Source: Candidatus Aenigmatarchaeota archaeon (lineage in GTDB: Archaea > Aenigmatarchaeota > Aenigmatarchaeia > Aenigmatarchaeales > JACQIB01). From it: a stretch of 64,000 nt of DNA. The translations under genes were made by a program, and so were the position numbers. The stretch is taken from the NCBI GenBank assembly GCA_016198755.1, contig JACQIB010000005.1, positions 160,001 through 224,000 on the forward strand. The letters are read 5' to 3'. Every line of letters begins with the position of its first letter. Within the stretch, counting starts at the first letter, position 1. Positions 31,616 to 36,552 of this stretch are shown one piece after another. Below the pieces are notes generated by a model that was given only the letters and a program-made list of their open reading frames with translations, ran no database searches and was not told the DNA's origin.

Positions 31616-32326
31616 TTATGCTGAGTTGGAAGGTGGGGATGTGTTGAGAGGCGGATCCAGGTCTACCACATCTGCCACAACCGCACGGGCTGTTATTGGT
31701 ATGTATCCGGCAGGCCATCTTTCATAAACTTCCATTCTGCCTTTTGGGTCAATAATTATGTTAAGGGGCTGGTTGTCTTCTATAACGCGGTCAGGCTCCT
31801 CTTGCACTCTTACATATCCCATCATATTGTCATATTCTGTTTGTACAGCAGCTCTGGGATCTTGATCTGTAAACCTGTATACATAATAGGATGGTTCCCC
31901 GTTTGTATTGAGAACATAGCATCCTAAAATAGATCCAGCTGTGATAATTTCATCAGCTCCCTTTTTAGTTTGACCAAATATTCTCCTCCAGCCCTGCTGC
32001 GCGCGCTGCCTGCTTGTTGCAAATCGTTTTAAAACTTCAGCAACATCCTGCGAAACAAACAGTCTTGGTTCCAGCTGTGAAAGATGTTGAGGCGGCCGCC
32101 AGTTTTTGCTGCCACCGCCCAGTTCAGCAATAGCCTGCTCTATTGCTTCGTTGGATTCATACGCAAGCTTCTTCTGAAGTTCTCTCTGTCTCACAACTTC
32201 TGGAGACGCAAATATTGCCTCACGGAGTGTGAGAGCTGCATCAAAATAAGTTACTCTGGGCGGTGCAAAGGCTCCTGTGATTTCCTCAAATACAAAATCT
32301 CCGCTTGAAGCTTCCATGCAAATCAT
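31616..32326 (-). CDS. Hypothetical protein
   Basis: 236-aa ORF. Confidence 0.6.
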   Translation of the reverse strand: MICMEASSGDFVFEEITGAFAPPRVTYFDAALTLREAIFASPEVVRQRELQKKLAYESNEAIEQAIAELGGGSKNWRPPQHLSQLEPRLFVSQDVAEVLKRFATSRQRAQQGWRRIFGQTKKGADEIITAGSILGCYVLNTNGEPSYYVYRFTDQDPRAAVQTEYDNMMGYVRVQEEPDRVIEDNQPLNIIIDPKGRMEVYERWPAGYIPITARAVVADVVDLDPPLNTSPPSNSA

Positions 32327-32406: not shown

Positions 32407-33243
32407 TTAAACCCATGTAAAGGAAAGCGGGGAATTGCCTGAGGAAATAGTGAGCTTTACCTGTCCGGTTTCTCCTTTAATCTCGGGGAAGAAAAGTTTT
32501 CCAGTTATGTGATGGCCTCCTGGTGGGGAACCTTCCCAGCGCAGAGGTGTATATTTATTCCCTTTATTGTCCTCAAGAACAGAATTTTTAGAAAAGTCTG
32601 AATCAAGGGAACCTGAGTGTGTGTTTACTGAAACTGAAAACACGGGGGGTTCAAGAGAAATAGGTGTGATATCATAGGATATGCTGTTTTGGCTTTCTGT
32701 AATGGTTTTAAAGGATGTTGTGGATGGGACAAAAGTGAGTAAAATAAAGGATAGGACAATAACTGCTGGCGAGAGCATTAAAATATGGTCTCTTACAGCT
32801 TTTATGTTGTATTTTGATATAGGTTTGATAAAATCTGGAAGGGAAGAATGTTTCTTAGCTATGCTTAGGAAATGCATTATTCCGACTGCATTGGAAAGTA
32901 TTCCTATTATAAGGAAAAGGGGCTGATAGTTTGAAAAAAACAGAGTTGCACCGGAAAGTCCGGCTATTGGAAGAACATCAGCAATATGATGAGCGCAGCA
33001 GGCTGCCATTGAACCTGTTGAGACTCCTCCGGTAGCTGCAATGCCTGCAACCGCTTTTTGTCTAATATAGGAAAACAAGTAGACTTGAAAGCCAAAACCT
33101 GTGATAAGAGGGAGCATAAGGTACCACAGGGAAAGGAAGCTTTCTAGAGCATGTTCAAAGCCCTGTGCTATCGAAACAATTAAAAAATAGCTGCCTATAA
33201 GGGATAGGCTGGCCACAACTCCGTAAACCTGCTCTTTTCTCAT
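32407..33243 (-). CDS. Membrane protein with ACCAHH motif and a C-terminal His-containing soluble domain
   Basis: About 5 TM segments, SMAACCAHH, NTHSGSL and WEGSPPGGHH. Confidence 0.75.
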   Translation of the reverse strand: MRKEQVYGVVASLSLIGSYFLIVSIAQGFEHALESFLSLWYLMLPLITGFGFQVYLFSYIRQKAVAGIAATGGVSTGSMAACCAHHIADVLPIAGLSGATLFFSNYQPLFLIIGILSNAVGIMHFLSIAKKHSSLPDFIKPISKYNIKAVRDHILMLSPAVIVLSFILLTFVPSTTSFKTITESQNSISYDITPISLEPPVFSVSVNTHSGSLDSDFSKNSVLEDNKGNKYTPLRWEGSPPGGHHITGKLFFPEIKGETGQVKLTISSGNSPLSFTWV

Positions 33244-33467
33244 TATCTCCCCTTTTTCTTTATATTGTCTACAAGGTTGCTGTGCATTGCATAGATCAGG
33301 AAAAATATTGCAAAAATTCCTGCTACCATTGCATCATAAAGGAATAACTCAGGCTGGATTAGGAATGGCTTTGTGCCTGTTGCCATAGCTGTCCATGCAA
33401 AACCATATGCTATCAAACCACAGATTACAAATATCCAAGATATTATGCCCCATAAATTGGCTTTCAT
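33243..33467 (-). CDS. Small two-TM protein
   Basis: Two hydrophobic helices; GGAGGTGA SD site. Confidence 0.75.
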   Translation of the reverse strand: MKANLWGIISWIFVICGLIAYGFAWTAMATGTKPFLIQPELFLYDAMVAGIFAIFFLIYAMHSNLVDNIKKKGR

Positions 33468-33478
33468 TTTATCACCTC

Positions 33479-33961
33479 CTATTCTTTGCAGCAGTCAACT
33501 ATTTTTTTTACTATTTCAGAAAACTTGCCAAGTTTACTCCCCTCCAAATCATCTCCTTTAAGCTCTTTCATTTCCACAATTTTCATGTTTATTGCAAAAA
33601 ACAGGGAAAATAAATTGAAAGCAAAAGAAAACATTCTTTCAGCCTCAGCCCTGTTTTTTTGTAACTCCTTTGTGCCAACTTCCACCAACCTCATGGAAGC
33701 TGCAAGCAGGTGTTTGGAAATGCACCACTCCTCACCCTTTGGGTCGGAAACTATCTTTTTCATCAGGGTTTTCCTCATTTCCCTTGTTGAGTAAAGCATA
33801 TCCAGATAAGACTGGTTTTGTGTTTTCATTGCAGTAAAATAGAAATGCTCCTCCAGACTAATCAAATTCATTAAGGCTATGCTTAGGTCCTCGTCTCTCG
33901 AGAGATCTGCGGAACCTTTTTTTGTTTCTTCTATTTTATTTAGCCAAAGGTTCTCGTCCAA
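33479..33961 (-). CDS. Helical hypothetical protein with LEEH, WCISKH and terminal DCCKE
   Basis: TTG start after GGGGTGAT; operon position. Confidence 0.7.
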   Translation of the reverse strand: MDENLWLNKIEETKKGSADLSRDEDLSIALMNLISLEEHFYFTAMKTQNQSYLDMLYSTREMRKTLMKKIVSDPKGEEWCISKHLLAASMRLVEVGTKELQKNRAEAERMFSFAFNLFSLFFAINMKIVEMKELKGDDLEGSKLGKFSEIVKKIVDCCKE

Positions 33962-33965
33962 AATA

Positions 33966-34505
33966 TCACCCCAGTGCAAGCTGGAAAACAACGCTTGCAG
34001 CCGCTAATACTCCAACAGTAAGCAAAACTCCCTGGAAAGGGAATAAAACCTTTCCATATAGCTCCTTTATTTTTAAGTGGAGCTTGAAAGCAAACAATGT
34101 TATTCCTACTCCAAAAACAGAACCGAAAAGGAGCTTGTCTACCCAGTAAATTTTGTTGAATACAGAACCTATTTCTCCGAAAAGCTTTACTGGTATGTAA
34201 ACATTCTCCTGCACACCAACAAGCAGGATAGAAGGTATGACTGTCAGTGCATAGGAAAGTATAAGTATAATCGGGAGCTGATATCTGAAATATTCTTTTT
34301 TTATCAATCTTGCAACCCATAAACCTGAGGAAATTGCAAGCGCACCTGCCAATAAACCAACAATAGTTATATCAAATCCGAAAATCTTCGCAGAAGCTAC
34401 AGCCATTCCTACTGCACCAACGCATAGTGGGCAGTGTGCAAAAGCTGGTGCACCTGAAAGAATAAAAGCTAAAAAAGCTGGAATTGCAATAAGCATTTTC
34501 CTCAT
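33966..34505 (-). CDS. Membrane protein with N-terminal HCPLC motif
   Basis: Signal-like start, AHCPLC, 4-5 TM segments. Confidence 0.75.
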   Translation of the reverse strand: MRKMLIAIPAFLAFILSGAPAFAHCPLCVGAVGMAVASAKIFGFDITIVGLLAGALAISSGLWVARLIKKEYFRYQLPIILILSYALTVIPSILLVGVQENVYIPVKLFGEIGSVFNKIYWVDKLLFGSVFGVGITLFAFKLHLKIKELYGKVLFPFQGVLLTVGVLAAASVVFQLALG

Positions 34506-34507
34506 GT

Positions 34508-34993
34508 TCACAGCCTCATAAACAAGCCCTGAACCTGCCCATCTGAAACAGAATAAATTTCAAGGGGCTGGCTCTTGTAACCTGGCATTCCAGGAGAACC
34601 CGAAGGCATTCCGGGAAGGGCTATACCGTCTATTTTTGGCTTTTCTTCCAGCAGTTTCTTTATTGCCTCTGCAGGAATATGTCCTTCAATAAAATAACCT
34701 CCTATCTTTGTTGTATGGCAGGTGCGGAGGTTGGATGGTATGTTTAGCTCATTGTTTATCTGGTCTGTGGTTTGAACCTGTACAGGTTTAACTGGCACTC
34801 CAGAATCCCTTAGGTAGCCAATATAGTTACCGCAGCAACCGCAGCTCTGTGAATAATAGACCTCGGCAGGGTTGCCCGCAAAAACAGACTGAGTTGCAGT
34901 TGCTTGGGCCGTTGAATTAGAGAAGGAAAAGGCAAAAAACAGACCTGCACCAACCAGCACCACTAATGTTACTATAGCCCACAGCCACTTCAT
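34508..34993 (-). CDS. DUF411 metal-binding protein (CopG-like)
   Basis: SCGCC, RTCHT, IEGHIP and ALPGMPSGSPGM. Confidence 0.92.
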   Translation of the reverse strand: MKWLWAIVTLVVLVGAGLFFAFSFSNSTAQATATQSVFAGNPAEVYYSQSCGCCGNYIGYLRDSGVPVKPVQVQTTDQINNELNIPSNLRTCHTTKIGGYFIEGHIPAEAIKKLLEEKPKIDGIALPGMPSGSPGMPGYKSQPLEIYSVSDGQVQGLFMRL

Positions 34994-34994
34994 T

Positions 34995-35255
34995 TTAACA
35001 TCCCCCAACCATTTGTGAACCTGTACCCTGAGACTGTGCAGCAACCTGATCTGGATGCATTCTTGCCATCATATCAGTGTAACTTTCTGCTCCAGCAGAC
35101 TGTACAGAACTTCCAGCTAAAACATTGCCTGTTGGACCAGATTTCTTCAGCTCAATTATTTGAAAGGATTGGAACATTGATATAACTAAAAGGAGTACAA
35201 CCATTGAAAGGGTTATGTAAATCTTCCAGTTAGCTTTTGATAATTCCTCTCCCAT
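34995..35255 (-). CDS. Small membrane-anchored protein ending in MVGGC
   Basis: One TM, MMARMH, C-terminal SQMVGGC. Confidence 0.8.
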   Translation of the reverse strand: MGEELSKANWKIYITLSMVVLLLVISMFQSFQIIELKKSGPTGNVLAGSSVQSAGAESYTDMMARMHPDQVAAQSQGTGSQMVGGC

Positions 35256-35257
35256 TT

Positions 35258-35959
35258 TTAACACCCCCCCACCATGCTTGAACCACCAGTGCCTTTCTCT
35301 ATTCCCCTATACTTGTTAGAAGCAAGGTTAATGTAATTTAGCTCAATTCCCTTGTCTTTCAGTATTTTTGCCTTTGCAGCTGTTGGTCCTGGGAAAAACA
35401 GAGTTTTCCACTTTCCTAACTCATCAAGTATCTGGTCATTTGTATACTCGCTCCCGTGATTCTTTAACAGGTATTTTGCCAACCCTCTCATAGCATAGCT
35501 GTGTGCGCATCCGCAAGCTGCATTACCGTTTGGAAAAATAATGGAAGCTGCTCCACAACAATATTCACAGCTTATCCTGCCTGCGATGTCTATATACCTT
35601 GTCATTTCTTCTGCACTGAGCGTTATCTGATCATCAAGAACACCAAGCTTGTTTATTGTTGCATCGGCCTTTTGGGGGTTTGTTACAGAAACATCATCAA
35701 AGCTCACCTTCAGCTCTTCTCCATATATAGAAGGAACCCCTTTTGGAGCTACATCTATTCCAGATACTTGGGACTGCTGTATTTGGGTAGTTGAAACTAC
35801 CGAAGATATTACATTTCCTGTAACCGTATTAGATACGGAAGCTGTAGCCAAGCTGTTCTTTTCTCCTACAAGGCTGTTTATTTGCATGGTGTTGAACCCA
35901 ACTATAAACAGGGCAGCTATCATAAGCCCAAAGCTTATCCTTTCCAATTCTTCTGACAT
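35258..35959 (-). CDS. Membrane-anchored Cys-cluster protein ending in MVGGC
   Basis: One TM, CEYCCG...ACGCAHS, C-terminal SSMVGGC. Confidence 0.82.
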   Translation of the reverse strand: MSEELERISFGLMIAALFIVGFNTMQINSLVGEKNSLATASVSNTVTGNVISSVVSTTQIQQSQVSGIDVAPKGVPSIYGEELKVSFDDVSVTNPQKADATINKLGVLDDQITLSAEEMTRYIDIAGRISCEYCCGAASIIFPNGNAACGCAHSYAMRGLAKYLLKNHGSEYTNDQILDELGKWKTLFFPGPTAAKAKILKDKGIELNYINLASNKYRGIEKGTGGSSMVGGC

Positions 35960-36015
35960 GAAACCCTATGAAAAGAAACAGTGTATATACCTACTACTGA
36001 AACTGGTTTCATTAC

Positions 36016-36507
36016 CTATTTCAGTACAATAATGTTAGTCATTCCCCTTCTCTTTCTCTCTAAAATATCCTTTAGCTCAAGCCTGTCAAGTATCCTTGTG
36101 ACTTTTACCTTGCCAAACCCTGTATCAGCTATTATATCTGTCTGGAAGGCTGAACCGCCTTTATTTTTTATAGTGTTATATACCTTTTTTTCCTCGTCTG
36201 CAAGTATAGAAAGGTCAAATAGTTTGAATTCTTTCTTCTCTGAGCCAATAGAAATTTTTGGCATAAATACCATATAACCTCCTAAACCGAGCACAAGAAA
36301 ACCAACACCAAATGAAGAAAGTATAAACCATGAGGCATTGCTTGTATGCACTGGGCAAGTTTTCATATCTAGGTTGTTCTTCTGGTACTGATCACACAAG
36401 AGTCCTGACTGGAAGTCATAGTCAAGCTTTACAAATGTAAGTACAAAGAGCAGGATTATGGAAAATCCTATAAGCAACGATCCCAGAGTTTTGGAGTTTA
36501 CATCCAT
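36016..36507 (-). CDS. Two-TM protein with a C-terminal winged helix (COG2512-like regulator)
   Basis: Loop C...CPVH between the TMs; FQTDI...GKVKVTRILDRLE...ERKRRGMTN. Confidence 0.85.
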   Translation of the reverse strand: MDVNSKTLGSLLIGFSIILLFVLTFVKLDYDFQSGLLCDQYQKNNLDMKTCPVHTSNASWFILSSFGVGFLVLGLGGYMVFMPKISIGSEKKEFKLFDLSILADEEKKVYNTIKNKGGSAFQTDIIADTGFGKVKVTRILDRLELKDILERKRRGMTNIIVLK

Positions 36508-36514
36508 GGTTCTT

Positions 36515-36552
36515 AGTGTATATAGAATGCTTTTAAAGGTATAGTATACACT
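36515..36552. promoter_or_regulatory. Candidate operator: inverted AGTGTATA...TATACACT flanking a TATA-like box; another AGTGTATATA copy at 35980-35989
   Basis: Exact motif matches read directly; function inferred. Confidence 0.4.

Follow-up and report, generated by a model that had tools for sequence, protein, structure and literature searches.

Eight co-oriented open reading frames (ORFs), here g1 to g8, lie on the minus strand at 32407..36507 of a 64,000-nucleotide window from Candidatus Aenigmatarchaeota archaeon (assembly GCA_016198755.1, contig JACQIB010000005.1, positions 160,001 to 224,000 of the forward strand). Comparison of this cassette across genomes supports a conserved, undescribed envelope system that combines flexibly tethered terminal cysteines with a Cys5His hub, a membrane protein bearing CPxC and, in the cytoplasm, a helical protein with a cysteine tail. 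On balance its probable role is to relay or buffer Cu(I) by means of cysteine arms, in an undescribed arrangement that reaches from the cell exterior through the membrane into the cytoplasm. An earlier description made from the letters of this DNA (the sequence-only reading) had proposed an eight-gene, co-oriented cluster rich in Cys and His, and all eight ORFs with their motifs were confirmed in the ORF listing of the window:

g1, 36016..36507, minus strand: predicted membrane-bound one-component regulator with two transmembrane (TM) helices, an outward loop and a cytoplasmic winged helix-turn-helix (wHTH) domain
g2, 35258..35959, minus strand: N-terminally anchored extracytoplasmic hub with a helical domain, a Gly/Ser linker and the end SSMVGGC
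g3, 34995..35264, minus strand: anchored mini-protein with the Met/His motif YTDMMARMHPDQ (MMARMH) and the end SQMVGGC; likely start ATG 35255
g4, 34508..34993, minus strand: anchored CopG/DUF411 protein with CGCC, CHT, EGH and PGMPSGSPGMP; the ORF runs to 35044, likely start ATG 34993
g5, 33966..34511, minus strand: small polytopic membrane protein with A-H-C-P-L-C right after a signal-like stretch and FPFQG near its end
g6, 33479..33991, minus strand: cytoplasmic helical protein with no signal peptide; LEEH, WCISKH and a C-terminal DCCKE
g7, 33243..33467, minus strand: 74-residue ORF with two TM helices, start-stop coupled to g8
g8, 32407..33243, minus strand: membrane domain with S-M-x-A-C-C-A-H-H and an optional extracytoplasmic domain, THxGSLDFD ... 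WEGSxPGGHH

The junctions are tight throughout, with overlaps or gaps of 1 to 11 nucleotides; the sole exception is the 56 nucleotides between g1 and g2. The g3 ATG lies 2 nucleotides past the g2 stop, and the g4 ATG 1 nucleotide past the g3 stop. Pfam matches among the eight proteins were limited to g1 (DUF7343) and g4 (DUF411). PHROGs gave zero matches for all eight, and NCBIfam sub-threshold matches only. Among the matches listed by full-text literature searches, no paper dealt with the MVGGC tail or with the protein families of the cassette.

Terminal-cysteine arms and their hub

g2 and g3 are built alike, each with one N-terminal membrane helix, a disordered Gly/Ser linker and a Met-Val-Gly-Gly-Cys-COOH tip (codons 35261-35275 and 34998-35012, respectively). 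The sequence-only reading had singled them out as two tandem MVGGC proteins, and these adjacent genes proved to be the only ones with that end among the 4,931 ORFs of at least 40 residues in the whole genome. Of the best 120 g2 homologues, 80 ended in GGC and 74 in MVGGC; those without GGC stop about ten residues earlier, at ...RGIENGN. Among 128 listed representatives of 50%-identity clusters, each at least 170 residues long, 100 ended in GGC and 20 more had a cysteine within the last six residues (MVGSC, MVGAC, MVGDC, WVGDC and others), leaving eight with none.

Related loci were then compared, 102 in all (22 in species genomes, 80 in metagenomes; a further locus, L036, duplicated the contig of L001 and was excluded). 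These are the best g2 matches, several are near-duplicates, and the genomes, of one phylum, are kin. Tail encodings were counted in the window and 101 loci, with L001 also left out. The 158 distinct proteins ending in MVGGC were written with 70 different 15-nucleotide encodings in which all synonymous codons of Val, Gly and Cys occur, and selection therefore acts on the peptide and not on a ribosome-binding site. This bears out conservation at the protein level, a check that the sequence-only reading had proposed, and refutes the alternative it had named, namely that the G-rich codons are kept only as the Shine-Dalgarno site of the next gene. The tail as a mere artefact of ribosome binding is ruled out.

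The 5,451 ORFs of at least 40 residues in the window and related loci included 174 distinct ORFs ending in G[GS]C: 71 of g2 type, 103 small anchored proteins (median 82 residues) and no other kind. Met occupies tail position -5 in 65 of the 71 g2-type and 93 of the 103 small proteins; Val occupies position -4 in 70 and 100, respectively, and the tail is often extended to LPxMVGGC. Many of the small proteins comprise just the helix, a Ser/Gly/Ala/Gln linker and the tail. Within the small class (<170 residues), 25 carry MMx[RAE][MH]H, the g3 type, and 34 carry MxYE[MH]HG; Met/His motifs such as these are of the kind used for Cu(I). Twelve tail mini-proteins have an N-terminal, presumably cytoplasmic, [HMP]DCC motif ahead of the TM helix (L059, L060, L074, L076, L089, L093, L105, L111, L113, L114, L117 and L118). 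This echoes the DCCKE end of g6, so that the same Cys-Cys signature would mark the cytoplasmic side of both.

Fifteen g2 orthologues lacked the tail. For ten of them the locus encodes a tail-only ORF on the same strand; two were followed by a QVGSC mini-protein, two were cut by contig ends, and one (L106) appears fused to a g3-like motif. The pairing of tailless g2 with tail-only ORFs indicates that what never varies is a g2 core together with one or more terminal-Cys arms, whether attached to the core (in cis) or separate (in trans). Judged by sequence, the tail is the putative functional unit of both g2-type and small anchored proteins. At L106 (8502-8735), the g2 orthologue continues into MTGWTEDEKMMYEHHG, a motif of g3 type, and its end, ...ARLQQKSQ, has no cysteine; it may be a fusion, or the tail may have been lost through a stop codon.

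The g2 core is defined by CEYCCG and ACGCAHS in the window protein. An alignment of 47 family members showed C131, C134, C135, C149, C151 and H153 to be invariant, in the pattern C-x-x-C-C ... C-x-C-x-H. More than 2,087 homologues were found at roughly 55-80% identity, all lacking a name or a Pfam domain; those from named lineages belong to Woese-, Aenigm-, Diaphero- and Nanoarchaeota. When 1.84 billion cluster representatives were searched with a profile, 307 clusters (50% identity) matched at E<=1e-3.

An AlphaFold model of g2 (predicted local distance difference test, pLDDT, 84) was confident for residues 70-220, with a disordered linker ahead of the domain (38-61) and a disordered tail (226-233, pLDDT <50). 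Within the confidently modelled domain, helices 116-126 and 152-168 flank the Cys-rich loop. Of 48,161 chains, the top structural match was the periplasmic domain of CcmH (2hl7_A; root-mean-square deviation, rmsd, 3.3; 77 of 82 residues; model residues 107-217) with a Z of 5.9, which is middling and below the level that excludes a common arrangement. Rows below this match align just the first ~50 residues of g2, its N-terminal TM-anchor helix, and Foldseek with the same model found no match at E<=1e-3. According to the excerpted text of PMC3884852, one TM segment anchors CcmH and its CxxC lies in the loop that follows helix 1; g2 appears to resemble the CcmH/NrfF/CycL family (PF03918; 2HL7) in its single TM anchor, its small helical domain and its CxxC after the first helix. 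It differs in its motif (I-S-C-E-Y-C-C-G vs LRCxxC), in three extra invariant cysteines and a histidine, and in its C-terminal Cys arm. The Pfam CcmH model matched neither g2 nor, with E relaxed to 5, a single one of 47 family members. The apparent likeness is at the level of fold and not of family membership. No Ccm genes occurred among the scanned neighbours; a genome-wide Ccm search was not made. Two other candidate relatives of g2 were rejected: PDB rows for Hsp70 substrate domains (E ~0.006) are weak and align to the poorly conserved stretch N-terminal to the Cys domain, and kinship with the PCYCGC family (PF13798), which occurs in neighbouring ORFs and is mentioned in passing in one lipoprotein survey, received an hhalign probability of 0.7%.

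Partner proteins and recurrence of the cassette

The assignment of g4 to DUF411/CopG in the sequence-only reading was upheld by Pfam (PF04214, 3.6e-25, 87.9 bits vs a cut-off of 27) and by PDB entry 6WIS (E 1.3e-18), with CGCC, CHT, EGH and the Met-rich PGMPxGSPGM stretch aligned. By its sequence, g4 is a CopG relative. In excerpts of the review PMC7558416, CopG is described as a thioredoxin-like periplasmic protein that carries a Cys-bridged Cu4 cluster via CxCC and contributes to anaerobic copper resistance. The CxxCC...CxCxH of g2 resembles this vicinal-Cys logic of CopG. The cassette differs from CopG in that g4 is membrane-anchored whereas CopG is soluble, in that CopG is an optional part of it, and in that g2, g3, g5, g6 and g8 are unrelated to CopG by sequence.

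g1 matched Pfam DUF7343 (PF24034; 6e-11, 42.5 bits vs a cut-off of 27.6) over residues 103-162. Its outer loop reads C38-x12-C51-P-V-H54 (LLCDQ...KTCPVH); C51 was invariant in 38 of 38 orthologues, and a loop of the form C-x(5-13)-C-P-[AV]-H was present in most. Of the transmembrane sensor suggested by the sequence-only reading, what stands is a TM wHTH protein with a conserved Cys...Cys-Pro-x-His loop, usually encoded upstream of g2; sensing itself is a prediction.

g5 retains H25, C26, P27, C29, G44, G55 and Q159 (the last in FPFQG) in all 43 orthologues; its conserved cysteines are the N-terminal CPxC pair alone, placed on the outer side of the membrane, with none facing the cytoplasm. Neither g5 nor its 43 orthologues belong to a Pfam family, DsbD_TM (PF02683) included, and its 55 homologues are all annotated "hypothetical". 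In 32 g6 orthologues E46-E47-H48 and E86-x-W-C89-x-S-K-H93 were invariant, and a Cys-Cys tail, [DKN]CC[KRM]E, was present in 24, mostly as DCCKE (...KKIVDCCKE). In the g6 model (pLDDT 78.5), four helices form a bundle, after which come a disordered linker and then a terminal helix. The best structural matches of g6, sulerythrin (7o8d_A, Z 9.4, 119 residues, rmsd 4.1) and rubrerythrin, are within the noise for helical bundles; Foldseek gave E ~1 and probability 0.5-0.7 for the same proteins, below the noise level of that tool for such bundles. The E...ExxH motifs of ferritin-like di-iron proteins are absent, the invariant residues of the alignment including no ExxH pair.

g8 keeps M78, C81, C82 and H84 in at least 90% of 19 sequences, with the vicinal cysteines inside a hydrophobic stretch, a feature that resembles the TM-helix Cys pair of MerT, MerC and MerF without implying membership. 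g8 itself has no Pfam family, and four of the 19 members weakly matched DUF5643. Mer families were absent from the Pfam matches of g5, g8 and their orthologues. In the Protein Atlas, g6 and g8 matched unnamed ("hypothetical") clusters only, and PDB sequence searches with g2, g5, g6 and g8 returned nothing meaningful.

The eight window proteins and 13 neighbour families were searched by tblastn against the related loci, and a recurrent order emerged: g1, g2, one or more tail proteins, optionally g4, then g5 and g6, and finally g8 or other small Cys/His membrane proteins. Downstream of g2, the 46 loci with at least 2.5 kb of sequence held a tail-only ORF in 43, g5 in 35, g6 in 28, g4 in 14 and g8 in 11 cases. 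g1 lay within 2.5 kb upstream of g2 in 26 of the 46 loci with enough sequence. Co-occurrence of the genes in other genomes, which the sequence-only reading had left to be checked, is thereby confirmed, and the sequences indicate a cassette conserved in DPANN archaea. g7 is no conserved part of it: this ORF gave a single weak match in the 102 loci, is missing from the otherwise complete L034 cassette and appears to be lineage-specific.

Pfam families among the neighbours were YHS-type P1B ATPases, PadR regulators, a multicopper oxidase, DsbA-like proteins, AhpC/TSA-redoxins, CcdA/DsbD_TM proteins and PCYCGC proteins. Where at least 6 kb was available on both sides (15 loci), an ATPase was found within ~9 kb in nine, a PadR regulator in seven and a multicopper oxidase in one. 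A multicopper oxidase lies directly upstream of g1 at L037. At L044, L064-L066 and L068, g2, a tail protein, an AhpC/TSA-redoxin and CcdA stand in a row.

Coupling of these parts was also apparent at the genome level. One sample of 201 genomes of the phylum was searched for g2 (single-sequence query), g5, DsbD_TM and g6, which were present in 40, 33, 51 and 26 genomes, respectively, kin genomes in these counts not being independent. Either g5 or DsbD_TM/CcdA occurred in 37 of the 40 genomes with g2 vs 37 of the 161 without it. Twenty-two of the g2 genomes have g5, and 15 of the other 18 have DsbD_TM. The g5-g6 module is thus an alternative or an addition to CcdA-based modules for g2 and its arms. 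g6 is accompanied by g5 in 24 of its 26 genomes, with the two adjacent in the listed places, and seven genomes have both g5 and g6 and no g2 match. At L135 and L136, the two loci with a stand-alone pair in which neighbours were scanned, g5-g6 lies among genes for a tRNA synthetase, SRP54 and Pus10. The g5 motif of L136 is TCPVC, and this gene is preceded by an anchored, Cys-containing ORF of 144 residues.

A probable Cu(I) relay or buffer and its rivals

Copper is the best candidate cargo on sequence grounds. It is favoured because of the CopG protein in the cassette, the copA, PadR and multicopper oxidase neighbours, the Met of the tail and the Met/His motifs of the arms. The cluster itself contains no P-type ATPase, multicopper oxidase or CcdA, as the sequence-only reading had correctly noted. 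The same genome encodes a copA-type P1B ATPase at C5:143701-146566, unlinked to the cassette, with a Cu(I)-type signature (an HMA CxxC domain, CPC, YN and MxxSS). Beside it is a divergently placed PadR regulator with a Cys-rich, TRASH-like C-terminus, and the pair is the copper-export locus of this genome. The copper link that had been drawn earlier from DUF411 is reinforced by copA, PadR-TRASH regulators and one multicopper oxidase, all seen beside the cassette in other genomes. By contrast, the accompanying term "stand-alone" was too strong, because the genome has copA and PadR-TRASH on C5 and an ATPase lies within ~9 kb in nine of the 15 long-flank loci.

In the proposed mechanism, the terminal thiolate, aided by Met at -5, would catch Cu(I) beside the membrane and hand it to two sites of buffering or oxidation, CopG and the Cys cluster of g2. 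g5 and g6 would form the membrane and cytoplasmic leg, either carrying metal across the membrane or keeping the outer cysteines reduced, a position that redoxin and CcdA may take in other genomes. g1 may sense the same metal, or the redox state outside the cell, and control the operon. As to the direction of flow, detoxification alongside CopA is more likely than uptake. A narrower version posits a new kind of envelope machinery, in which tethered peptide arms of 60-90 residues, each made of one helix, a disordered linker and a five-residue working tip, serve the shared g2 hub and g5-g6 is a CcdA-independent conduit between hub and cytoplasm for metal or reducing power; it is put forward only tentatively, as rather unlikely in that exact form.

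Several observations weigh against a copper relay of this composition. At all five loci read for it (L134-L138; genomes G010, G006, G056, G079 and G074), g5-g6 occurs without g2 or an MVGGC ORF; its presence alone in other genomes makes it a separable module, recruited by g2 and the arms. Where g5 is missing downstream of g2 (11 loci), its place is taken in 10 by a redoxin, CcdA or a thioredoxin-fold membrane protein. CopG is found in just 14 of the 46 loci, an ATPase in just nine of the 15 with long flanks, and the copA of this genome is on another contig. CcmH, the top structural match of g2, is a thiol oxidoreductase; this and the replacement of g5 would suit a purely thiol-redox role. The tail Met may not be a ligand, since 26 of the 128 representatives end in QVGGC, with Gln at -5, and Gln is a poor ligand for Cu(I). 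Finally, the locus counts are descriptive and not statistical, given that the loci were picked as best g2 matches, include near-duplicates and are kin.

The main rival is a metal-free thiol-disulfide pathway, which we consider unlikely as a full explanation. Here g2 would be a CcmH-like reductase or isomerase with the terminal cysteines of the arms as its partners or substrates. Redoxin and CcdA would recycle it in some genomes, g5-g6 in others such as this one, and the pathway would protect or repair surface thiols on the numerous Cys-rich proteins that these archaea secrete. Its appeal rests on the top-ranked structural match (Z 5.9 over 77 of 82 residues) between two helical domains, each held by a single TM segment and each with a CxxC in the loop just past its first helix, and on the rows of g2, tail, redoxin and CcdA, which mirror the known CcdA, CcmG/ResA, CcmH order and place known upstream reductants of CcmH after g2 in some cassettes; the DsbD_TM protein in 15 of the 18 g2 genomes without g5 fits as well. 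The Z is only middling, however, and 0 of 47 g2-family members match Pfam CcmH. The extra CC and CxC, the His, the tail Met, the arm Met/His motifs, CopG and the copA, PadR and multicopper oxidase neighbours point instead to metal, and g5 lacks the conserved cytoplasm-facing cysteine that a transmembrane thiol cascade needs. A role in thiol reduction would nevertheless fit the CcmH-like fold and the redoxin/CcdA partners equally well, and the Cu(I) and thiol roles are compatible, since only cysteines kept reduced can bind Cu(I). TlpA/ResA-CcdA reduces copper-site cysteines, and Scs is a copper-tolerance system; in both, thioredoxin-like and CcdA/DsbD-type proteins adjoin copper-handling proteins, as they do beside g2 elsewhere. 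This genome differs from them in having the undescribed g5-g6 pair in place of a detectable CcdA.

The same relay for another soft metal (Hg, Ag, Cd, Zn or Ni), as a Mer-like chain, is improbable. The Mer relay comprises MerP, MerT/MerC/MerF and the N-domain and C-terminal Cys-Cys tail of MerA. The cassette shares its outside-membrane-cytoplasm layout of paired cysteines, with MVGGC arms, HCPLC of g5 and ACCAHH of g8, and the DCCKE tail of g6, and a mobile C-terminal Cys tail for hand-over (g6 and the arms); thiolate ligands are, moreover, not specific for copper. Yet no part of the cassette falls into a Mer family (g5 and g8 included), a reductase is lacking, and the likely metal is copper, as suggested by the Cu(I)-type ATPase of this genome, CopG within the cassette and the multicopper oxidase adjoining it in one related locus. 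Still less probable is a carrier arm for sulfur (persulfide or polysulfide), with sulfur covalently bound to the terminal Cys. SoxY of the Sox thiosulfate oxidation system binds its sulfur substrate through the Cys of a C-terminal GGCGG, at least in the excerpted part of PMC6067878, and the terminal V-G-G-C resembles it as a Gly-flanked working Cys at the extreme C-terminus of a flexible arm. The cassette Cys, by contrast, is the last residue, without the trailing GG. Its arms are membrane-tethered, many without a folded domain, and the context is one of copper or thiol redox; Met/His motifs and CopG are unfit for sulfur chemistry. Pfam SoxY matched neither the eight window proteins nor the 47 g2-family members, and no rhodanese or sulfur-oxidation family occurred among 24 neighbouring ORFs scanned.

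The least probable of these alternatives takes the tail for a sorting, anchoring or lipidation signal whose Cys is modified or cross-linked to the S-layer or a host surface. The sequence-only reading had offered a modification or sorting tag, and the motif is indeed strictly terminal, common to otherwise unrelated proteins and often found as LPxMVGGC. But the tailed proteins are already anchored via the N-terminal helix, tail-only proteins would carry no cargo to sort, and the loci share no recurring gene for a modifying enzyme or for a sortase-, archaeosortase- or transferase-like protein.

If the narrower version, with tethered arms, a g2 hub and a g5-g6 conduit, were correct, ultra-small archaea would manage copper and thiols at the envelope by means of components unmatched in model organisms. 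DPANN genomes are tiny, yet the cassette is kept in thousands. Five of its families (g2, g3, g5, g6 and g8) lack a Pfam model or a name in the sources searched, and the hallmark pentapeptide is strictly terminal, retained even on mini-proteins with no folded domain. Arms that carry Cu(I) would represent a new solution to copper stress for single-membrane cells without Cus- or CueO-type systems, and a simple model for metal carriage on a tether, in the manner of a "fishing line". Should the arms instead be substrates of thiol redox chemistry, the cassette would constitute a new extracytoplasmic reducing pathway with a possible substitute for CcdA. Either way, a block of "hypothetical proteins" becomes a defined system.

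Genome setting and minor observations

The source assembly consists of six contigs totalling 0.89 Mb and is 89% complete; the window is on contig C3. Among sequencing runs, no RNA data were listed; four groundwater DNA runs from a single study may represent the source. DsbD_TM and Cu-oxidase_3 had no match anywhere in this 89%-complete assembly. The cluster has an ordinary G+C content and is flanked by housekeeping genes: ProRS and ProC upstream, and downstream a 236-residue ORF followed by the proteasome beta subunit and FttA/aCPSF1. This ORF (31616-32326, minus strand), directly 3' of g8, has no Pfam match and was not seen adjoining the cassette in other loci.

Two further features were noted around the promoters:

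36515..36552, minus strand: candidate operator, an inverted repeat AGTGTATA-N22-TATACACT bracketing a TATA-like TTTAAAA box 5' of g1
35980..35987, minus strand: third copy of TATACACT, within the 56-nucleotide spacer between g1 and g2

TATACACT occurs seven times in the window vs 1.25 expected, with three of the seven copies in the two promoter regions of the cluster. The inverted repeat was not found in 29 other g1 upstream regions from related loci; being unconserved upstream of g1 orthologues, the operator remains a lead only.

Other families accompany the cassette elsewhere. Two unassigned ones recur on its 3' side, for example at L050 (13831-14055 and 11135-11599): a small anchored family with C-[AK]-T-P-x-G-Y-T-D-x-x-W-x-E-H-M-x-H-H-P...C-L and a membrane-protein family of ~150 residues with S-A-H-S-V-C-H-x-x-C-L-G. 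Equivalents were present in 11 and seven of the 46 loci, respectively, and neither family was found in this genome. Anchored proteins of the PCYCGC family (PF13798) recur beside SfLAP/CcdA-like membrane proteins in copper islands (L040:9464-9928 and L040:5585-5989; also L034, L037, L038, L061 and L083). One of them ends ...PLPAGCSV, with another near-terminal Cys, and the same islands hold shorter g2-like paralogues ending in AGSCSA, AGSCNV or AGACG. Outside the window, a 571-residue ORF on contig C5 (14740-16455, plus strand) ends ...SSCATGPGCGC, another Cys-rich C-terminus.

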